Below, piece after piece: positions 1,655 to 63,645 of a stretch of 64,000 nucleotides of DNA. Source of the stretch: Actinomycetota bacterium (GTDB taxonomy: Bacteria > Actinomycetota > Actinomycetes > S36-B12); assembly GCA_030684515.1 (NCBI GenBank), contig JAUXVJ010000024.1:39663-103662 (forward strand), read 5' to 3'. The translations under genes were made by a program, and so were the position numbers. Positions within the stretch are counted from its first letter, which is position 1, and each line of letters starts with the position of its first letter. The notes under the pieces were generated by a model. That model was not told the origin of the DNA, did not search any database, and saw only the letters and a program-made list of their open reading frames with translations.

Positions 1655-1858
1655 CACGCGGGAGAGTCTGGCGTTCATTTCGGTGAACGGCAGCGCCGAA
1701 GGAGCAAATCTCCCCGACAACCTCTCAGGCAAACGGACCGCATGGGGAAGGCACCTCTGGAAGGCGGGCTTGCGCCCCACCGACGGTGAAACTGATGCGC
1801 GAGCATCGGGAAACTCTCAGGTCGCGATCCAATCGCGGGCAACAGAGGGGGAGAAGGC
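1655..1858 (+). promoter_or_regulatory. Tandem glycine riboswitch (two aptamers) in the gcvP leader
   Basis: Aptamer 1: GGGAGAG...CGCCGAAGGAGCAA...CTCAGGCAAACGGACCG. Aptamer 2: CTCTGGAAGG...CACCGACGGTGAAA...CTCAGGT...GGCAACAGAGGGGGAG. Sits immediately 5' of the gcvP ATG. Confidence 0.85.
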
Positions 1859-1887
1859 ACAACCGTGCCCTCGACCCGGGGAGAGTC

Positions 1888-4758
1888 ATGTCCGAACGCG
1901 AATTCAGCTTTGTCGATCGCCACATTGGTCCAGATGAGCCTGCTGTCGAGCACATGCTTGCCACCCTTGGCTACGCCAACCTCGATGCGTTCACCTCTGC
2001 TGTAGTCCCCGAAGTCATCGCCTGGACTGATGCGCTCGAACTACCAGCGGCCGTGGATGAGTTCGCGGTGCTGGCAGAACTGCGCGCGATTGCAGCGCGC
2101 AACTCAGTGAAGACCAGCATGATCGGACTGGGCTATTCCGATACCCATACGCCAGCAGTGATCAGGCGCAATGTCCTTGAGAATCCCGCTTGGTACACGG
2201 CCTATACGCCATACCAGCCTGAGATCAGTCAAGGTCGGCTCGAGGCACTCCTGAACTTCCAGACGATGATCGAGGATCTCACGGCTCTGCCAGTCGCTGG
2301 ATCCTCGCTCTTGGACGAACCCACTGCAGCTGCCGAGGCGATGGCGCTCAGTGTTCGTCAGGGACCCAAAGGAGTGCAGCGCTTTCTCGTGGATGCGGAC
2401 ACGCATCCGCAGACTCTTGCGGTGCTCAACACGCGTGCAGAGCCTATGGATATCGAGTTGATCCAAGCCGATCTCAGTCAGGAGTGGCCAAGCGGACCGT
2501 GGTCGGGCGTGCTGATCAGCTACCCCGGATCGTCCGGAATCGTCCCCGACTTAGGCGCACTGATTGCCAGGGCTCATGATGCCGGAGCGCTTGCAGTTGT
2601 TGCTGCCGATCTGCTGGCGTTGTGTGTGTTCACACCTCCAGGTGAGCTGGGAGCCGACATTGTGATCGGCTCTGCACAGCGTTTTGGCGTGCCGATGGGC
2701 TTCGGTGGACCGCACGCCGGCTATATGTCGGTTCGCGCAGGCCTTGAGCGCTCGCTGCCTGGTCGACTCGTCGGCGTGAGTCTTGATGCTGATGGCAACC
2801 CTGCATATCGACTGGCGTTGCAAACTCGTGAGCAGCACATTCGCCGAGAGAAGGCCACAAGCAATATCTGCACTGCACAGGTGCTGTTGGCGATCATCTC
2901 GGCGATGTATGCCAGCTACCACGGCCCAAGCGGGCTCACGGCCATTGCGCAACGTGTGCATCGAAGCGCCTTGGTGCTGCGCACCGGCTTGCAGCGTTTG
3001 GGGGCCACGACTTCGGAGGCGCCGATTTTCGACACAGTGCAGTGGCAGGTGCCCGGCAAGGCGGATGAGATCTGTGCAGCAATCGCAGACAATGGAGTCA
3101 ACATTCGCGTCGTGGATGCGGACACCTTGTCGGCGTCAACCGACGAACTGACACAGGCTGAGCATGTGCAGATCATTTGGGATGCAACCGCTCAGGCTCT
3201 TGGTCTGAACAGCACTGCAGATCTGACCACTCTTGAGAATGAAGTCGTGAGTTTTGCTACGCGCACCTCATCCTTCCTGCAGCATCCGGTCTTCAATACA
3301 CATCACAGCGAGACGTCGATGATGCGCTACCTGCGCAAACTTGCCGATCGCGACATCGCCCTCGATCGAGCCATGATCCCGCTGGGTTCATGCACGATGA
3401 AGCTGAACGCGGCAACGGAGATGGAGTCCATCACCTGGCCAGAATTTGCCGGATTGCATCCCTTTGCTCCGACCGGCGATGCAGCGGGATCCATTGACTT
3501 GATTCAATCCCTAGAACGGTACCTCGCAGAGATCACTGGTTACGACTACGTCAGCGTGCAGCCCAACGCCGGGTCTCAAGGCGAGTTCGCAGGACTGCTC
3601 GCCATCCGTGCCTATCACCACTCAAATGGTGAGCACGCCCGAAATGTCTGCCTGATTCCCAGCAGCGCTCACGGCACCAATGCCGCAAGTGCAGTGATGG
3701 TCGGCATGCGCGTGGTCGTCGTGAAGTGCGATGAGTACGGAAATGTCGATCTCGATGATCTCAACTTGCGGATAGCCGAACATGGCCCCCAACTCAGCGC
3801 CTTGATGATCACCTATCCATCCACACATGGCGTGTTCGAGACTGCAGTAGCCGACATCTGCGCGCTGGTGCACGACGCGGGTGGCCAGGTCTACGTCGAT
3901 GGCGCAAATCTCAATGCCCTGGTCGGGCTAGCCAAGCCCGGGCGATTTGGGGCTGACGTATCGCATCTGAACCTCCACAAGACTTTCTGCATTCCGCATG
4001 GAGGCGGTGGTCCAGGTGTTGGACCTGTTGCAGTGCGTGAGCACTTGGCGCCATTCCTGCCCTCGCATCCCTTGCGACCAGAAGCCGGACCCTTGGGTCG
4101 AGGCCATCGCGATGGTGGAGTAGGTCCGGTCAGCGGCGCGCCTTGGGGGAGTGCAGGCATTCTGCCAATTCCTTGGGCCTATATCCGAATGATGGGTGCC
4201 GAGGGTTTGAAGCGCGCAACTCAAGTGGCCATATTGTCGGCGAACTACATCGCCAGGCGACTCAACGATCACTATCCCGTCCTGTATACAGGCAGCACCG
4301 GACTTGTGGCGCACGAATGCATTCTGGACGTCCGCCCGATCACTTCGGCGACTGGTGTCACGGTGGACGACATCGCCAAACGACTGATGGATTACGGCTT
4401 TCACTCGCCGACAATGTCTTTCCCGGTGGCAGGAACTCTGATGATTGAACCCACGGAGTCCGAAGATCTGCTCGAAATTGATCGCTTCATTGACGCGATG
4501 ATCTCCATCAAGACGGAAGTCGATGAAGTTGCGGCCGGAATCTGGCCACTTGAGGACAGTCCTTTGCGCAATGCCCCGCATACAGCCGATTGCGTCATCG
4601 GGGATTGGGACCACAGTTACCCGGCCAGGCTTGGCGCCTTTCCCGCTGGAATTGCCCAGGCTGATAAATACTGGCCGCCTGTCCGGCGTATCGATGGCGC
4701 ATATGGCGATCGCAATCTCGTGTGCAGCTGCCCAAGCCCCGCTGAACTCGCAACGTGA
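1888..4758 (+). CDS. gcvP: Glycine dehydrogenase (aminomethyl-transferring), glycine cleavage P protein
   Basis: 956 aa from ATG 1888 ([15 protein letters not shown]), preceded by a GGGGAGAG SD. PLP-lysine region [18 protein letters not shown]. The longer ORF start at 1786 lies inside the riboswitch. Confidence 0.95.
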
Positions 4759-34641: not shown

Positions 34642-36006
34642 CTACATCAAAGCGATGAGCCTCTCAACACGTTCATCTACGGCTGTGAACGGGTCTTTGC
34701 ACAGCACCGTCCGTTGCGCTTGGTCATTGAGCTTCAGGTGAACCCAGTCAACGGTGTAGTCCCGATGATTTTCCTGCGCACTCTTGATGAAGTCGCCCCG
34801 CAATTTTGCTCTCGTGTTCTGCGGAGGAATCGACTTGGCTTCAAAGACTTCCAAATCCTTGGAGATCCGGTTGACCATCCCGCGCCGTTCGAGCAGGTAG
34901 AACAGTCCTCGATTGCGGGTGATGTCGTGATAGGCCAAATCGATCTGCGCAATGCGTGGGGAGTCAAGGCCCAGATCATGCTTATCCATATAGCGATCGA
35001 TCAGTTTCTTCTTGATGACCCAATCCACATCACGATCCAGAGCATCAAGATCGCCCGCTTCCAAAGCGATGAGCGACTTTTCCCACAGAGCGAGCACCTG
35101 ACGATGTATTGGATCCTCACGCAAGCCACGGCTGTCTGCGAAGTCGCTGGCCTTCTCGTAGTACTCCGATTGAATCTGGATAGCTGTGAGATCCCTGCCG
35201 GTGCTGAGTTTCACCTCCGTCTTGCAAGTGGAGTCGTGGCTGATCTCGCGGATCGATCGAATGGGGTTTTCAAGGCTCATGTCGCGCATCACCACGCCAC
35301 CTTCAAGCATGCGCAAGACCAGGTCCACGATGCCGACCTTGAGCATTGTGGTCATCTCACTCATGTTGGAATCACCGACGATTACGTGCAGGCGTCGATA
35401 AAGCTCTGCGTCAGCGTGCGGCTCGTCTCTGGTATTGATGATTGGCCGCGAGCGCGTGGTGGCGCTGGAAAGGCCCTCCCAGATGTGATCGGCACGCTGG
35501 CTCAGCGCATAGATCGGGCCGCGCGGAGTCTGTAGCACTTTGCCTGCCCCGGTAACGATCTGGCGAGTGATGAAGAAGGGAATCAGACGCTCAGCAAGCC
35601 TGGCAAAATCACCATGACGCTCCACGAGGTAGTTCTCATGGCAGCCGTAGGAGTTGCCGCCGGAGTCAGTGTTGTTCTTGAACAGGTAGATGTCTCCATT
35701 GATGCCTTCGGCGCGAAGACGCTCCTCGCCGTCGTAGACAAGGCCCTCAAGAATGCGATCACCTGCGCGGTCATGAGTGATGAGCAGTGGAACGCTGTCG
35801 CACTCAGGTGTTGCGTATTCAGGGTGACTGCCGACATCCAGATAGAGCCGAGAGCCGTTGCGCAAGAAGACATTGCTGCTGCGGCCCCATGAGACAACTC
35901 GACGAAACAGGTAGCGGGCCACTTCGTCAGGGCTGAGTCGACGCTGTCCTTGAAAAGTGCAGGTCACTCCGAATTCGGTCTCTAGTCCGAAGATCCTGCG
36001 GTTCAT
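34642..36006 (-). CDS. pafA: Pup--protein ligase PafA
   Basis: 454 aa. [13 protein letters not shown] start, carboxylate-amine ligase fold, and no Dop-specific insert. Confidence 0.92.
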
Positions 36007-36015
36007 CTGCCCACA

Positions 36016-36705
36016 CTAGGCCAGAAGAGTGTCCAGACGACTGCCATTGATGCGTACAAAGGTCCGGCGCGGGCGGGTGCGATCAAGCACAGCAACTTCC
36101 AGTGCTGCCGGCTCAAGTGTGCGAGATTCTTCAGCGCCGAATTCGCCGAGCAATCGCACTGCGAGCTTCAAGGAGTCGGCGAGTGACATTCCGGCGTGCC
36201 ATTGCTCCTCCAGAGCTGATGTGATGCTCTCTGCCTGGCCACCCATCGCGACGTAGCCCTGCTCGTCGGCTACCGAACCGTCGAAAGTGAGCCGGTAGAG
36301 CTGATCCTCGCTGGAGTCCTCGCCAATCTCGGCCACCACGATCTCGACTTCATAGGGCTTGGGCATCTCGGTGAAGATCGTGCCGAGAGTCTGGGCGTAG
36401 GCATTGGCGAGGCTGCGTCCGGTGACATCGCGCCGGTCGTAGGAGTAACCGCGCATATCTGCAAGTCGCACACCGGCAACTCGGAGATTCTCGAATTCGT
36501 TGTATTTTCCGACGGCCGCGAAGCCGATGCGGTCATAGATCTCGCTGATCTTGTGCAGCGCACGCGAAGGATTCTCAGCGACGAAAAGCACACCATCTGA
36601 ATACTCGACAACGATGACGCTGCGCCCACGGGCGATCCCCTTGCGGGCGTAATCGGCCTTGTCCTTGATGATCTGCTCGGGCGCGACATAGAAGGGCATA
36701 CTCAC
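36016..36705 (-). CDS. prcA: 20S proteasome alpha subunit
   Basis: 229 aa. [29 protein letters not shown]. Confidence 0.92.
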
Positions 36706-37550
36706 TGTGCATCCTCCATTGGCACGAGAGGCCCATCTGGGCGTCGTTGACGTGCTTGAACAATGGTGGTCACATATGCGGCGAGCTCGTCCTCTTGGAG
36801 CAGGCGCACCCCCACCGCATCAGTCACTGCGATGACCGGGAAGATCCCGCGAGCCAGATCAGGACCGCCCGTTGCACTGTCGTCATCTGCTGCGTCGTAC
36901 AGAGCCTCAAGGGCGACCATGATTGCCTGCTCGGCCGACATGTTCTCGCGATACATCTTCTTCATCGAGTTCTTGGCGAAGAATCCACCCGATCCCACAG
37001 AGTGATAGTCGTGCTCTTCATAGCGACCGCCGGTGACGTCATACGAGAAGATCCGTCCGCGTTCGCGATCAAGGTCATAGCCGGCGAACATTGGCACGAC
37101 CGCCAGCCCCTGCATCGCCATACCGAGGTTGCCGCGCAGAAGCCCAGACAGTCGATTGGCCTTGCCGTCCAGGCTCAGCTGCACGCCCTCGATCTTCTCG
37201 TAATGCTCAAGTTCAACCTGAAAGAGGCGAACAAGCTCAAGTGCAATACCGGCAGCTCCCGCGATGCCGATGGTTGAATGCTCATCAGCCTGAAAGACTT
37301 TCTCGATATCGCGTTGAGAGATCACATTGCCCATAGTCGCGCGACGATCGCCCGCCATGATCGCGCCAAAGCTGCCGCGCAAGGCCACGATTGTGGTGGC
37401 ATGAGGTGCAAGGGTGCTGGAGTCCACAGCAGGATTCAGTAGCAAACGCGCACTGAGTACGTCAGGCGCAAGGTCGGCAAGAAAATCAGCAAACGAGGGC
37501 GAGCCTGAGCGAAGGTAAGCCGCCGGCAGCAGGCCACCACCCGAAGTCAC
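36702..37550 (-). CDS. prcB: 20S proteasome beta subunit (with propeptide)
   Basis: 282 aa. Propeptide followed by the catalytic Thr in HATTIVAL. Confidence 0.92.
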
Positions 37551-37753
37551 TGACCACCCTTTTGCACGAAGGACTTCACGAAGTCTTCGGCATTGACTTC
37601 AAGCACGTCATCGATCTCATCCAGCATTGAATCAACTTCAGCATCAAGGGCAGCCTTGCGTTCTGTCGCGGCCGCATTCGAGGACACCTGTTCTTCGGGT
37701 ACGTCCTGCGCAGGCCGTGCGGACTTGCGTTCGGCGTTCTCGCGTTGAGGCAT
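37547..37753 (-). CDS. pup: Prokaryotic ubiquitin-like protein Pup
   Basis: 68 aa, acidic and disordered. Ends ...FVQKGGQ, so the C-terminal Gln needs Dop deamidation. Confidence 0.92.
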
Positions 37754-37778
37754 TTGTCTAGGTTACCTGTTCAGGTGA

Positions 37779-39296
37779 CTAAGCACCCAGCAACTCGACC
37801 AGTTCTGAGGCATTTGCTGCGTTGGCAAGCAGTTCGCCAACCAGGGCCTGAGTGCCCTTGGTGGGCTCCATCGTGGGTACCCGTATCAGAGTTTCCTTGC
37901 CAGGCAGGTCAAAGATCAGGGAGTCCCAAGACGCTGCGGAAATCTCATCGGGAAAACGGCGCAGGCATTCGCCGCGGAAATAGGCGCGGGTGTCAGTGGG
38001 TGGATGGAATTGAGCGTGCTCGATCTCCGAGTCGGTCAGCATGCGCACGAGTTGACCGCGCTCTTCCAAGCGCAAGGCCAGACCTTTGTCAGGTCGAATA
38101 TCGGCGTACTGCAGATCGATCGCCTGCAGCTTCGCTGATGACCACTCGAGGTCACCACGGGTGCGATACGCCTCCATCAGCCGGTACTTGGCGACCCAAT
38201 CCAGCACGTCGGCACATTCCATCGGTTCTTCCTCAAGGCGATCAAGCACCCGACCCCATTGAAGAAGGACATCGACTGTCTCCTCGTCAATATCGTCGGC
38301 AAAACTTGAATCGCAGAATTTTGATGCAAGGTTCCAGAACTCTCGCTGCATCTCCAACGCTGTCCAGTTGCGCCCATTCGTGAGAGGCACCCGCTTTTGC
38401 AGAGTGATGTCGTGGCTGACCGCATACATGGATCGGACAGCTTCCGTCGGCGTCATGTCCTTGTCGCTCAAGAAGCCGCTTTCCAGCATGCTGAGCACCA
38501 GCGAGGTCGTGCCCATCTTCAGGTAGGTAGCGGTATCGCTCATGTTTGCATCGCCCACAATCACGTGCAGTCGACGAAAACGTTCTGCATCGCAGTGCGG
38601 CTCATCGCGCGTATTGATGATCGGCCGCTTGAAAGTGGTCTCTAGACCCACTTCGGTCTCAAAGAAGTCCGCACGCTGGCTGATTTGATACTTGAAATCG
38701 CGAGTCTGCTGTCCGACTCCAAGTCGACCAGCACCCGTGAAGATCTGCCGGGAGATGAAGAAGGGTGTCATCCACGCAACGATCGAGGAGAACTCCGTCG
38801 ATCGATTCATGAGGTAGTTCTCATGGCAACCGTACGAGGCGCCCTTGTTGTCGGTGTTGTTCTTGTACAACAGGATCGGCAGGTCAACCCCATCGGTAGT
38901 GGTGTACTGGGCGGCCCGATACATGATCGCGGCACCTGCTCGGTCCCAGAGCGCTGCGTCGCGCGGACCCGTGACCTCAGGCGACGAATACTCCGGATGC
39001 GCGTGATCAACGTAGAAGCGCGCACCATTGGTCAAGATGACATTGGCCATGCCCATGTCATCATCAGTCAACTGCGACGGGTCGGCTTCGGATCGGCTCA
39101 TATCAAAGCCACGAGCATCACGCAGAGGCGCTTCCTCGGAGTAGTCCCACTTGGGATTTCGCTGCCGTCCACGAATGTTGTTGCGTGCGTAGGCATTGAC
39201 CAGCCGAGTGGACGTGGCCATTGCGTTCATGATGCGCACGCCTGGCACGGTGATGCCGTACTCAGTCTCAATGCCCATGATCCGATGCACGGTCAT
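37779..39296 (-). CDS. dop: Pup deamidase/depupylase Dop
   Basis: 505 aa PafA paralogue with the Dop-specific insertion. MTVHRIMGIETEYG. Confidence 0.9.
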   Translation of the reverse strand: MTVHRIMGIETEYGITVPGVRIMNAMATSTRLVNAYARNNIRGRQRNPKWDYSEEAPLRDARGFDMSRSEADPSQLTDDDMGMANVILTNGARFYVDHAHPEYSSPEVTGPRDAALWDRAGAAIMYRAAQYTTTDGVDLPILLYKNNTDNKGASYGCHENYLMNRSTEFSSIVAWMTPFFISRQIFTGAGRLGVGQQTRDFKYQISQRADFFETEVGLETTFKRPIINTRDEPHCDAERFRRLHVIVGDANMSDTATYLKMGTTSLVLSMLESGFLSDKDMTPTEAVRSMYAVSHDITLQKRVPLTNGRNWTALEMQREFWNLASKFCDSSFADDIDEETVDVLLQWGRVLDRLEEEPMECADVLDWVAKYRLMEAYRTRGDLEWSSAKLQAIDLQYADIRPDKGLALRLEERGQLVRMLTDSEIEHAQFHPPTDTRAYFRGECLRRFPDEISAASWDSLIFDLPGKETLIRVPTMEPTKGTQALVGELLANAANASELVELLGA

Positions 39297-39320
39297 GTGG
39301 CACTCACTTTCTGCGCAACC

Positions 39321-40985
39321 TCACAGGTACTGGCCGGTATTGGCAACCGTAGCGATGGAACGACCGGCTTCGTTGCCCTTCTTACCCTGCACCAAGGTAC
39401 GGATGAAGACGATGCGCTCGCCCTTCTTGCCAGAGATTCGGGCCCAGTCATCCGGATTCGTCGTATTGGGAAGGTCCTCATTCTCACGGAACTCATCGAG
39501 GCAGGCATCAATGAGATGCTGCACACGGATGCCCTTCTCGCCAGTGTCGAGGAAGGCCTTGATCGAGGCCTTCTTGGCCCGAGCCACGATGTTCTCAATC
39601 ATGGCTCCGGAGTTGAAATCCTTGAAGTAGAGGATCTCCTTGTCGCCATTGGCGTAGGTGACCTCAAGGAAACGATTCTCGTCGGATTCGGCATAGATCA
39701 TTTCGACTGCGCGTTGGATCATCGCCGCACACGCAGCGGGGATATCGCCATCGTGCGCCGCCACATCTTCTGGGTGGATCGGCAGTTCTGGCACAAAGTA
39801 CTTGCTGAAGATCTCGCGCGCTGCTTCGGCGTCTGGCCGCGCAATCTTGATCTTCACGTCCAAGCGCCCCGGGCGCAGGATCGCTGGATCAATCATGTCC
39901 TCGCGATTGGAGGCGCCAATCACAATGACGTTCTCAAGCCTCTCCACGCCGTCAATCTCACTGAGCAATTGCGGCACGATGGTGTTCTCAACATCGCTGG
40001 ACACACCTGAACCACGGGTGCGGAACAGTGAGTCCATCTCGTCAAAGAACACGATGACCGGCATGCCCTCTGAGGCCTTTTCGCGAGCACGCTGGAAGAC
40101 CAGGCGGATATGTCGTTCTGTCTCACCCACGTACTTGTTGAGCAGTTCAGGACCCTTGATATTCAAGAAGAAGGAGCGACCCTCTTCCGTGCCATTGCGC
40201 TCGGCAACCTTCTTCGCAAGGGAATTGGCCACAGCTTTTGCGATGAGCGTCTTTCCACAACCGGGCGGGCCGTAGAGCAGGATTCCCTTGGGTGCTTTCA
40301 ATTGGTGCTCGGTGTATAGCTCTGCATGCAAGAAGGGCAACTCGACCGCATCCCGGATCGATTCGATCTGCTCCCCCAGGCCGCCAATATCCTCATAACG
40401 AATATCGGGCACTTCTTCGAGCACTAGCTCTTCGACTTCGGATTTGGGGACGCGCTCAGTGACGTAACCCGAGCGGGTGTCCAGCAGAAGTGAATCGCCA
40501 GCGCGAAGTTTGATCGTCAGCAAGGGCTCGGCCAGTCGTACGACCCGCTCATCATCTGATCGACCAACGACAAGGGCGCGAGTTCCATTGTCGATGAGTT
40601 CCTTCAGCATCACTATCTCGCCGACATCCTCAAAGTCGCGAACACCAATGATGGTCATCGAGTCGCTGAGCATGATTTCCTGACCCGGAACCAGTGTGCT
40701 CAGATCAATGCCAGGACCCACAGGCACGTGCATCTTCCTGCCGGCCGAGAGCACATCTGCGGTGTATTCATCAACAGCGCGCAGGAAGGTTCCGTAGCCG
40801 GCAGGCGGCATCGCGAGTCGATCAAGCTCACCCTTGAGATTGACGATCTGCTCGCGAGCTTCGCGCAGGGTGCTGATCAGTCTGGTGTTGTGATCCTTGT
40901 GCGCAATGAGATCACCTCGAAGGCGAGTCAGGGCAGATTCCAAAGCAATGACACGCTCGATTTCGGGCGTATTCGGGTCCGTCAT
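39321..40985 (-). CDS. arc: Proteasome-associated AAA ATPase ARC/Mpa
   Basis: 554 aa. N-terminal coiled coil, Walker A GPPGCGKT, and the C-terminal GQYL proteasome-docking motif. Confidence 0.92.
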
Positions 40986-58584: not shown

Positions 58585-58724
58585 AGGTCCACCTTATTGG
58601 CCAGGCAGGGCGATATTCCCTCAGATCATGGGCCCGAAACCGACTGCTCCCTCATTCTGCTGGTGGCAAGCTCACGAGCCGCGTGCTTTGCATCTGAGCG
58701 ATTCAGGTAGATTGGCTCCCAGCA

Positions 58725-58808
58725 ATCGAGGGGCGCTGCGACGGGCGAACACCCGCCACGCTCGATGTGCGCACGACAGAACAAGGGCGCCTCCGGTCTT
58801 GGAGGCGT
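58725..58808 (+). promoter_or_regulatory. Probable SAH riboswitch (metH motif) with SD-sequestering hairpin
   Basis: P1 ATCGAG/CTCGAT (58725-30 / 58761-66). Conserved core GAGGGGCGCTGCGAC. P2 CGGG-cgaaca-CCCG. The 3' tail GCGCCTC (58787-93) can pair with GGGGCGC (58730-36) as a pseudoknot, or with the SD as GCCTCC-ggtctt-GGAGGC (58789-58806). ATG at 58811. Confidence 0.55.
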
Positions 58809-58810
58809 GA

Positions 58811-61800
58811 ATGTTCGAACCCCAGATTCGTCCTGATGCAACAGATGTCTTGACGCGCCTGCTTAAGGAACGCGTGCTGATTCTCGACGGCGCCATGGGC
58901 ACCATGATTCAGCGCTATACCTTCGACGAGGCTCACTATCGCGGCGAACGCTTTGCTGACTTTGCAGGAGATCTGCAGGGCAACAACGACCTATTGAGCC
59001 TTACACAGCCCGCCACCATCAGCGCCATTCATCGTGAGTACCTGGACGCTGGCGCGGATCTGATCGAGACCAATACCTTCAATGCCCAGCGGATCTCACT
59101 CGCGGATTACGCCTTGGAAGACCTCGCCTATGAGTTGAACTACGCGTCAGCTCGTCTGGCTCGAGCACAATGCGATGAAGTCACAGCACTTGATCCCTCA
59201 CGACCTCGCTTTGTAGCGGGAGCGGTCGGACCCACAACGCGTACTGCGTCCATCTCCCCCGATGTCAATGATCCCGGCGCGCGCAACGTCAGCTACGAGC
59301 AGCTCGCAACGGCATATCTCGAACAGGTAAATGGGCTCGTCGATGGCGGTGCAGATCTGCTGCTCGTGGAGACCATCTTCGACACCCTCAATGCCAAGGC
59401 CGCGATCTTCGCTATTGAAACTCTGTTCGAGGAACGAGGGCGACGCTGGCCGGTCATGATCTCCGGCACGATCACTGATGCTTCCGGACGCACGCTCTCT
59501 GGTCAGGTCACCGAGGCATTCTGGAACTCCATGCGTCACGCCAAACCGCTGCTCATGGGGTTGAACTGCGCTCTTGGTGCTGACGAGATGCGCCCATATC
59601 TGGCGGAGATGTCCCGCATCGCTGACTGCTTCGTGTCCTGTTACCCCAACGCCGGCTTGCCCAATGCCTTTGGCGAGTACGACGAGGCCCCTGAGCAGAC
59701 CGCAGCGATCGTGCGCGAGTTCGCTGAAAGTGGATTGCTCAACCTGCTCGGTGGTTGCTGCGGTACGACACCGGATCACATTGCGCGGATGGCGGAGTCC
59801 GTGGCAGGCATCACGCCGCGCATTCCTCCAGTGATCGAACCCGCCTGCCGGCTGTCTGGTCTTGAGCCGCTGACGATTGTTCCTGAGTCACTGTTTGTGA
59901 ATATTGGTGAGCGCACCAACATCACGGGCTCCGCACGATTCCGCAATCTCATACGCGATGGCGATTACGGCACTGCGCTTTCAGTCGCGCGCCAGCAGGT
60001 CGAGAGCGGTGCTCAGATCATCGACATCAACATGGATGAAGGCATGATCGATGGCGTCGCAGCCATGGATCGCTTCGTCAAGCTCGTTGCTTCTGAGCCT
60101 GACATCAGCCGCGTACCGCTCATGATCGACTCGTCCAAATTCGAGGTGATCGAAGCTGGGCTGCGTTGTGTTCAAGGCAAGCCGATCGTCAACTCGATCT
60201 CCATGAAGGAGGGCGAGGAGAAGTTCCGCCGCGAAGCGATCTTGTGTCGCAAATACGGTGCGGCGGTTGTCGTGATGGCCTTTGACGAACAAGGGCAGGC
60301 CGACAACCTCGAGCGTCGCAAGGCGATCTGTCAACGGGCCTACGACATCCTCGTCAACGAGGTTGGCTTCCCCGCTGAAGACATCATCTTCGATCCGAAT
60401 GTCTTCGCCGTTGCAACTGGCATCGAGGAGCATGCCAATTACGGAGTCGACTTCATCGAGGCAACTCGGTGGATCAAGCAGAACCTGCCCGGCGCCTTGG
60501 TATCTGGCGGCGTTTCGAATGTCTCGTTCTCATTCCGCGGCAACAACGCCGTGCGCGAGGCGATCCACAGTGTGTTCCTGTTTCATGCGATTGCTGCTGG
60601 CATGGACATGGGCATCGTCAATGCAGGTGCACTGGTTGTATACGACGAGATCGACGCCACTCTTCGCGAGCGCATTGAAGACGTCATCCTGAATCGTCGT
60701 GCCGATGCAACTGAGCGACTGCTTGAGATCGCGGCCGACTTCGCTGGAGATGGCATGAAGGTGGAAGGCGCCAACGAAGAATGGCGTGAACTTCCTGTCG
60801 ATGAGCGCATCACCCACGCCCTGGTCAAGGGCATCGACGATTACGCCGAGACTGACACCGAGGAACTTCGCCTGCTCATCCAAGAGCGTGGCGGCAGGCC
60901 CATCGAGGTCATCGAGGGTCCATTGATGGCAGGCATGAATGTGGTCGGCGATCTCTTCGGCGCGGGCAAGATGTTCTTGCCGCAGGTCGTGAAGTCAGCA
61001 CGCGTGATGAAGAAGGCCGTCGCCTACCTCATCCCCTTCATCGAGGCGGAGAAGCATCCAGATGACGCCGGCCGTAGCAACGGGCTGGTCATCATGGCCA
61101 CGGTCAAGGGCGACGTGCCCGACATCGGAAAGAACAGCGTCGGTGTGGTGCTTCAGTGCAATAACTATGAGGTGATCGACCTGGGTGTCATGGTGCCGGC
61201 GCAGAAGATTCTGGACGCCGCCAAAGAGCACAAGGCGGACATCATTGGCCTGTCTGGTCTCATCACGCCTTCACTGGACGAGATGGTGAATTTCGCCACG
61301 GAGATGGAACGACAGGGCTTGGATATTCCATTGCTCATTGGTGGTGCCACCACTTCGCGCGCCCACACCGCTGTGAAGGTCGATCAGAAGTATCACGGTC
61401 CGGTCGTCTGGGTGAAGGACGCATCACGTTCTGTGCCCGTTGTCGCCGCGCTGCTGTCGGATGACCAACGCCCGGCATTGCTCGCTGATCTGCAGGTGGA
61501 CTATGACTCGCTGCGTGAACGCTATGCAGCACGCGCCAATGCGAAGGTCATCCTGCCCATTGACAAGGCACGCGCCAACAAGACAGCGATTGAATGGTCT
61601 GGCTACCAACCGCCAAAGCCAGTCACACCAGGCGTGCAGGTGTTCGACGACTACTCCATTGCCGAGCTGCGTGAATACATCGATTGGCAGCCCTTCTTCA
61701 ATGCCTGGGAGATGAAGGGCAAGTTCCCCGACATCCTCAATAACCCAGCTTCCGGCGAAGCAGCACGAAAGCTCTACGACGATGCGCAGGTGATGCTCGA

Positions 61801-62542
61801 CCAGATCATCAACGAGAAGTGGCTGAAAGCCTCTGGCGTCATCGGCCTGTTTCCGGCCAACACGATCAACGATGACGACATTGAGGTGTATGCGGACGAG
61901 TCACGCACCGAGGTGCTCCAGACTCTGCGCGAAGTACGCCAGCAGAGCGAGCATCGCGAGGGAATCCCGCATCGCAGCCTCTCGGACTTTGTCGCGCCCA
62001 AGCATTCCGGGCTTGCGGACTACGTCGGTGCCTTTGCCGTCACCGCGGGGCTCGGCAGTGCTGCCAAGGTCATCGAATTCAAGGAAGCGCTCGACGACTA
62101 CAGCGCGATTCTGTTGGAGTCATTGGCTGATCGCCTTGCAGAGGCTTTTGCTGAGCGGATGCACGAGCGTGTGCGCAAGGAGTTCTGGGGCTACCAGCCT
62201 GACGAGCAACTCGACAGCGAGGAACTCATCAAGGAGAAGTACGTCGGCATTCGGCCTGCACCGGGTTACCCGGCCAACCCCGAGCACACCGAGAAGCAGA
62301 CGATCTGGCAGTTGCTTGATGTCCAGGCCAACACTGGAATCGAACTGACCGAGAGCATGGCCATGTGGCCAGGCGCGGCTGTCAGCGGTCTGTACTTCTC
62401 ACATCCTCAGTCGCAGTACTTCGTGGTTGGACAGATCGGTCGCGATCAGGTCACCGACTATGCCGCGCGCAAGGGGTGGACCGTCGCGGAGGCTGAGCGC
62501 TGGCTGTCGCCGAACCTCGGATACCGAACCGACGACGAGTAG
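58811..62542 (+). CDS. metH: Cobalamin-dependent methionine synthase (B12 motif reads GDVPDIG instead of GDVHDIG)
   Basis: 1243 aa with all five modules: Hcy ([15 protein letters not shown] Zn ligands), pterin, cap, B12 and AdoMet (RPAPGYPA). Codon 770 is CCC (Pro) where the His ligand is expected. Confidence 0.92.
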
Positions 62543-62640: not shown

Positions 62641-63645
62641 CTAGTTCAGGTTTCTTGCCAGAATCGGAATTTCGGCCAAGGACCGCAGCATGTCATTCAG
62701 ATGGGTGCAGCCCAGAACGCCAGGCAGAGTCCTGATAACAGTGGACCTGAAGTCAGAAACTTCTGTGCCTACCATCCTTGAAATATTGAGCACAGCGGCC
62801 GGGCAGGTGTCGAACGGCAGCACTCGTGGTTCTGCACTGACTGAGGTCAGCACCCCGTCCATATCAACGGAGGCGCGCAAGGTGTATTCATGAACGGCGA
62901 ATCGAACACCGTCGGGATTGATGCCACTGTCCTGGAAGAAGGTATCGACTTGGATCTGTCCATCTTCCAACCACACGTCTATTCGCCGGGCTCTGCGCAT
63001 CGAAGGACCACGATCATCGGCGGCATGCTCATGCCAGCCCAGTGGATCCGATGTGTCGCGAAGTGGTGGGACCGGCCGGGTCTGCTGGGTGGCCATGATT
63101 CCTTCATCGGGTGAGTGATGACTGGATCCAGCTGCGTGGCCGATGCAGATGTCTTCCATCATGTTCAAGGTGCCCTTGAAGACCGGGCGATCTTCGGGCG
63201 CAATCCATTCATATCTGATCTGGCCCGAGATCAGTGCGGCGGATGGAACGTCATCCATCAACAGATACAGGGCCGTGCCCTGCTCCTTGTCGTCCGGAAT
63301 CAACTGACCCATTTTCGTTCGAGATCCGGCTGCTCCGCGCGCTCCGATGAGTTCCTGCAGAGCTGGGCGATCCGGAATCGATGCCAGCGCCACATAGAAG
63401 CGTTCGGGCGAGATGTAGGCGGTCACGGTCGCAAGGTCAATGACCCAGGTCTCGCCCACTGAGGTGGTCATCAAATCGCGACAGGTGCCTTCGCAGTGCA
63501 CGTCGTGATCCAGACCCTTTGGCCAATTCATGTCGACTGTGCTTGTGCGTCGCACAGATCCAAGGCGACGAGGCGGAGTCGGCTGAGATGGGCCAAGGAC
63601 ATCGGCAGTGAGGACACGAGATCCGAAGGGCCACTCAAAAGGCAT
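62641..63645 (-). CDS. DUF2889-domain protein
   Basis: 334 aa. C-terminal GVLGCTHLNDMLRSLAE motif typical of DUF2889. Confidence 0.6.
   Translation of the reverse strand: MPFEWPFGSRVLTADVLGPSQPTPPRRLGSVRRTSTVDMNWPKGLDHDVHCEGTCRDLMTTSVGETWVIDLATVTAYISPERFYVALASIPDRPALQELIGARGAAGSRTKMGQLIPDDKEQGTALYLLMDDVPSAALISGQIRYEWIAPEDRPVFKGTLNMMEDICIGHAAGSSHHSPDEGIMATQQTRPVPPLRDTSDPLGWHEHAADDRGPSMRRARRIDVWLEDGQIQVDTFFQDSGINPDGVRFAVHEYTLRASVDMDGVLTSVSAEPRVLPFDTCPAAVLNISRMVGTEVSDFRSTVIRTLPGVLGCTHLNDMLRSLAEIPILARNLN

Follow-up and report, generated by a model that had tools for sequence, protein, structure and literature searches.

Introduction

The methionine synthase considered here is closest to the cobalamin-dependent enzymes of E. 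coli and human type (MetH; PDB 9ssp, 1k7y, 3bul, 1bmt), with which it shares the order of its five domains and an alignment over nearly the full length. Work by Jarrett et al. in 1996 reportedly showed that mutating His759 of E. coli MetH (H759G) abolishes turnover. In a further source, His759 is described as the lower cobalt ligand in the methylcobalamin state and as a residue making interdomain contacts in the reactivation state, and the H759G protein as constitutively His-off and in the reactivation conformation (PMC10293825). With respect to regulation, another report names MetH as a member of the S-adenosylhomocysteine (SAH) riboswitch regulon in Comamonadaceae (PMC4239095).

We analysed a window of 64,000 nucleotides, the whole stretch of DNA presented here, from a metagenome-assembled actinobacterial genome. 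A sequence-only reading had reported that its metH gene encodes Pro in place of the cobalamin-ligating His and, six residues further on, Ser in place of Ile, and had offered three explanations: substitutions introduced by sequencing or assembly, a recently inactivated metH, and an enzyme with a different cobalamin-binding mode. The deposited codons, if real, would remove the lower axial His ligand as H759G does in E. coli MetH; unlike the window gene, however, H759G is engineered, and no natural equivalent occurs among the MetH examined. Our data indicate that the observation is true of the deposited sequence and most likely not of the organism.

Results

The deposited metH differs from canonical MetH at two residues

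The gene and the parts of it that matter here lie as follows, in positions of the window.

58811..62542, + strand: metH, cobalamin-dependent methionine synthase, 1243 aa (ORF and translation; five intact Pfam domains, PF02574, PF00809, PF02607, PF02310 and PF02965; PDB methionine synthases matched at E = 0)
61085..61357, + strand: B12-binding (Rossmann-like) domain, residues 759-849, which holds the Asp-x-His-x-x-Gly loop (PF02310 match)
61118..61120, + strand: codon 770, deposited as CCC (Pro) in the window sequence and translation; contigs have A at 61119, which gives CAC (His)
61136..61138, + strand: codon 776, deposited as AGC (Ser) in the window sequence and translation; contigs have T at 61137, which gives ATC (Ile)

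The metH frame is the only long ORF at this place, and codons 770 and 776 both lie inside it. Pfam recovers the four-module MetH architecture in order, with the homocysteine-binding module (S-methyl_trans, residues 23-331), the pterin-binding module (Pterin_bind, 366-604), the B12 cap and B12-binding domains (B12-binding_2, 664-740, and B12-binding, 759-849) and the AdoMet activation module (Met_synt_B12, 950-1222). Coverage of the profiles is nearly full-length (2-273 of 273 positions for PF02965) for all domains but B12-binding, which is matched over 2-92 of 121 positions. The best solved methionine synthase, 9ssp_A, aligns with HMMER at 1476 bits over residues 9-1241, and 1k7y_A at E 9.6e-226 over residues 657-1241. 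The Zn-ligand cysteines of the homocysteine domain, one in GLNCALG and two in GGCCG, are aligned with 9ssp_A and conserved, and the translation contains IRPAPGYPA in the activation domain, which has the AdoMet-binding motif RxxxGY.

Positions 61109-61141 read GGC GAC GTG CCC GAC ATC GGA AAG AAC AGC GTC. In the HMMER alignment with 9ssp_A, P770 stands opposite H and S776 opposite I of ATVKGDVHDIGKNIVGVV, so both replacements are present in the deposited gene as first described. The deposited B12 loop is D-V-P-D-I-G, and the CAC codon of same-strain contigs restores Asp-x-His-x-x-Gly. Compared with the E. coli and human type enzymes, the deposited protein thus has the same loop but for Pro in place of His and Ser in place of Ile, with no other difference at a conserved column, and the contigs of the strain supply the canonical codons at both places.

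His and Ile are conserved in the MetH examined

All other MetH examined have His at the first of the two positions and Ile (or Leu) at the second. Among 30 loci of relatives, 28 cover the motif (L003 and L004 stop short of it), and His is found in 28 of these 28. The nearest relatives, G008 (protein 94% identical) and G004, have exactly GDVHDIGKNIV, written with CAT/ATC and CAC/ATT at codons 770/776, and relatives overall use CAC or CAT for the first residue and ATC or ATT for the second. We also searched a collection of 5.8 billion proteins with residues 752-800 only, so that proteins with words in common across the Pro would rank at the top. The best of 8000 scored candidates was 96% identical over the 49 residues, that is, it had two mismatches; no identical segment occurred among these candidates, and the 120 listed homologues have His and Ile in 120 of 120 cases. 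In contigs of one genome per species, 78 loci were recovered, 76 of which cover the motif (L153 and L160 end before it and were left out of the count), with His and Ile in all 76, 75 by pattern and one (L106) by eye. The alignment with orthologues proposed in the sequence-only reading therefore gives His throughout. When the Pro form was written as a degenerate DNA pattern, it matched once in the window and in 0 records of metagenome_contigs, a collection in which it had no positive control. The corresponding His-form pattern matched 103 of 169 loci, the remaining 66 comprising 60 loci of control genes, the locus of the window itself and five metH loci in which the stretch is absent or varies.

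These counts bear on the proposal that the window encodes a working MetH with another mode of cobalamin binding, either base-on or without a ligand ('His-off'), the loop beneath the corrin being reshaped by Pro770 and Ser776. Other families do include corrinoid proteins that lack the His, the window protein is intact apart from these two residues, and it is the only methionine synthase found in its genome, all of which would suit such an enzyme. However, no other MetH examined has Pro, the strain's own contigs read His, and the E. coli residue serves both as lower ligand and in interdomain contacts, its replacement by Gly leaving the protein constitutively His-off (PMC10293825). The proposal gained no positive support from our data, and we consider it very improbable.

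The rest of the gene is under constraint

We next asked how the protein behaves at conserved columns elsewhere, using 94 of the 120 listed homologues (1150-1300 aa, 70-94% identical to the query). At 366 invariant columns the window protein departs at two, which are residues 770 and 776, and at a further set of 212 columns conserved at 97% or more it departs at none. Relative to G008, 555 of 3732 bases differ. Third codon positions account for 475 of these differences, first positions for 58 and second positions for 22, and the 69 resulting residue changes are mostly conservative. Judged by its pattern of substitution, metH is not a decaying gene. The description of the remaining protein as intact was therefore accurate, with five Pfam domains and the named motifs in place and no departure at other invariant columns. 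The suggestion of a recently inactivated metH found no positive support, and no other decay was detected in the gene.

Two genes of the window served as controls. The proteasomal ATPase shows 0 departures at 225 columns invariant in 28 relatives, and GcvP, with 340 columns that do not vary among 29 relatives, has three changes there (T280C, A874S, I912V), all conservative; with only 28-29 relatives per set, 'invariant' is a weaker term here than in the test with 94 MetH homologues. A generally sloppy assembly was considered and rejected on these grounds, and because the control genes show no scattered radical errors, the pair of substitutions in metH is a local event.

Methionine synthesis appears to depend on this gene

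The genome (G000; 99.13% complete, 33 contigs) contains a single MetH match. A metE elsewhere in the genome had been suggested as something to look for, and no match to the MetE family (PF01717) was found in this 99.13% complete genome. A CobS gene is present at C1:436021-436719. With one MetH, no MetE found and CobS present, methionine synthesis therefore appears to be wholly cobalamin-dependent, and a dead MetH copy would mean auxotrophy.

The metH leader contains a candidate SAH riboswitch

Two elements precede the start codon.

58722..58799, + strand: candidate SAH riboswitch aptamer (RF01057, permissive scan, 34.6 bits where the gathering score is 37, E 1.2e-4)
58790..58805, + strand: hairpin between CCUCC and GGAGG, the Shine-Dalgarno sequence that precedes the ATG by 5 nt (minimum-free-energy fold)

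The match to RF01057 is full-length to the 78-position model and ends 12 nt before the metH ATG, and the hairpin could, from its predicted fold, be the expression platform. Between 56000 and 64000 the Rfam gathering score is reached by one tRNA only, and no cobalamin riboswitch was matched upstream of metH, whether at the gathering score or with E relaxed to 10. At the same leader position G008 has a match of 36.9 bits (L002 5241-5318, - strand), again under the gathering score of 37, and L143, whose MetH is 79% identical, one of 37.1 bits at 580-661, which is above it. By eye, one stem pair of the element is altered on both sides between G000 and G008. In other actinobacterial metH loci, RF01057 reached gathering in 1 of 20 and an E of up to 0.1 in 1 of 13. 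Like the SAH riboswitch, the element thus lies in the leader of a SAM-cycle gene, and it is conserved in G008 and L143, but it scores below gathering in both the window and G008. The earlier statement that metH appears to be regulated by a riboswitch accordingly stands in a narrower form: nothing in the leader reaches the Rfam gathering score, and the sequence points to a sub-threshold candidate of SAH type, not to a cobalamin riboswitch.

Contigs of the same strain carry CAC and ATC

A run index returned six holders of the sequence, from groundwater and freshwater metagenomes, the best of which (X1) holds a 0.94 share of 106 sampled words; no indexed run holds the full set. Of 1071 possible 31-letter words, 49 span one of the two sites, so about 5 of the 106 sampled words would be expected to be missing on their account. 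X1 lacks roughly 6, of which about 5 are explained in this way. We compared the window at 60600-61700 with contigs from four public groundwater runs of three studies (X1-X4), which may differ from the run behind the assembly. The material consists of Logan contigs, from which rare variants are dropped, and it can show that CAC/ATC exists in the strain, not that CCC/AGC is absent from it. The letters at the two sites were as follows.

Site 61119: window C; contigs A in X1 18, X2 14, X3 5 and X4 41, total 78/78
Site 61137: window G; contigs T in X1 4, X2 1, X3 2 and X4 9, total 16/16

In each of the four runs, the letter that differs from the window makes up the entire depth at either site. Most contigs over the two sites belong to metH genes of other organisms. 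Three pieces come from the same strain: record 1 of X1 and record 9 of X2, both over 60600-61128 with one other letter, and record 8 of X1, a 15,315-letter contig that covers 61099-61700 with two. Because every contig over both sites reads A and T, these one or two letters are the flagged bases. Since only those bases differ, 1099 of 1101 positions are identical between the strain contigs and the window, and the contigs have the regular CAC (His) and ATC (Ile). The same strain carries CAC and ATC in independently built contigs. Record 27 of X4, from a related strain with 30 other letters in 754, spans both sites and also has A and T. X3 has no listed same-strain piece over either site and contributes only His codons of other organisms. 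An exact search with the 42-base stretch just 3' of the second site gave 0 matches in metagenome_contigs.

The sequence-only reading had named raw reads with CAC and ATC at these codons as the result that would overturn the finding. CAC and ATC are what the Logan contigs contain; these drop minority alleles and are not raw reads, and the point is settled to that extent. Among the explanations first offered, substitutions introduced during sequencing or assembly is the one that the contigs of all four runs favour.

The depth profile indicates what is unusual about this part of the gene. Summed contig depth in X1 is 607-833 in the bins covering 61081-61154 and 27-29 in the flanks, and it is here that the contigs of the strain itself break off (at 61128) and start (at 61099). 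The assembly graph branches at 61081-61154 because this stretch is common to many organisms.

Discussion

We consider it probable that the deposited CCC and AGC are two wrong consensus bases, or at most a minority allele, in an ordinary and functional His-on MetH. As consensus errors, the two (A>C at 61119, T>G at 61137) are one kind of change, A:T>C:G, viewed from opposite strands; alternatively, the assembler may have happened to thread a minority allele. In the first case the deposited C and G would have arisen in sequencing, assembly or polishing. They sit in the most conserved stretch of the gene, nearly letter-for-letter common to the metH of dozens of organisms in the same metagenomes, and it is at such a branching place that an assembler or polisher may be most prone to err. 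Two errors 18 bases apart and both on invariant residues would be improbable as random error unless the conserved stretch itself causes them. A plain error is also unusual at a strain depth near 27-29, which counts against this account. Simple borrowing from the metH of a neighbour does not explain the wrong bases, since C is absent at 61119 from all contigs of the four runs, whatever the organism.

One guess as to their origin is an Illumina sequence-specific error. Such errors are described as being triggered by GGC and by inverted repeats in two reports (PMC3141275; PMC4787001). The window has GGC at 61109-61111, 8 bases upstream of 61119, and with A at 61119 the octamer 61114-61121 is its own reverse complement. 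Against this guess, the assembly may come from another sequencing platform, and the G at 61137 is neither of its neighbouring bases, unlike what a phasing slip would give.

The same bases could also belong to a real and very young allele, both substitutions having come from one clustered mutation event in one sub-population, which was possibly dominant only in the sample of the assembly. The MetH of the carriers would lack His ligation and be turnover-inactive, and they would need external methionine. The bases are, after all, present in the deposited assembly and genome, De Bruijn assemblers normally emit only words seen in reads, and contigs are unable to show the absence of a minor allele. 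Both changes being A:T>C:G and 18 bases apart would also fit a single multi-base mutation event. However, in two runs the same strain has CAC/ATC and is otherwise identical over 1.1 kb, no indexed run holds all words, no second lesion is found in 1243 codons, and neither a MetE nor a second MetH was found that would cover the loss. One radical change would moreover be enough to inactivate the enzyme, which leaves the second unexplained. We therefore regard a young allele as unlikely. The stronger claim that the CCC/AGC allele is real and was dominant in the source sample, making this a natural MetH without the cobalt-ligating His in a genome with no second methionine synthase found, seems to us less likely still.

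Taken as consensus errors, the two bases make this work, as it stands, a quality note on one metagenome-assembled genome. Trusting them would mean wrongly calling dead the only methionine synthase found in the organism. Stretches that are nearly letter-for-letter common to many organisms have the most tangled graph and also encode catalytic motifs, and errors can hide there. A real allele would make this a natural MetH of a rare, His-off kind, and would mean that a loss of methionine synthesis had been freshly caught; were it also dominant, the groundwater community would contain a new methionine auxotroph or, far less likely, a MetH that works His-off.

Some further observations concern the distribution of MetH in the genus and the genes around metH. 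There are two unrelated-looking types of MetH in the genus. The form resembling the E. coli and human enzymes occurs, besides the window, only in G008, G004 and G011 (93-97% identical). Where other genomes of the genus or the family have a match, the MetH frames are mostly about 1170-1210 aa long and only 34-39% identical to the window protein; in these same genomes the proteasomal ATPase is 84-96% and GcvP 79-87% identical. Outside the genus, the nearest homologues of the window type are in other Actinomycetota (73-82%). In G009 the other type of MetH lies 2.5 kb from the ATPase gene, and in the window metH is about 18 kb away from it. It looks as though a type of metH acquired horizontally has taken the place of another.

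The next gene downstream of metH, at 62644-63645 on the other strand (-), encodes a protein of 334 aa. DUF2889 is its single Pfam match and lies in the C-terminal third, the N-terminal 215 residues having none. GcvP, encoded at 1786-4755 of the window, also departs conservatively at two columns conserved in all but one relative (G222D, V294I). At 34645-40985 (-) the window has a Pup-proteasome set, consisting of two genes of the Pup-ligase family (PafA/Dop-like, 454 and 505 aa) and the proteasomal AAA ATPase (554 aa), and this gene set fits an Actinomycetota genome.
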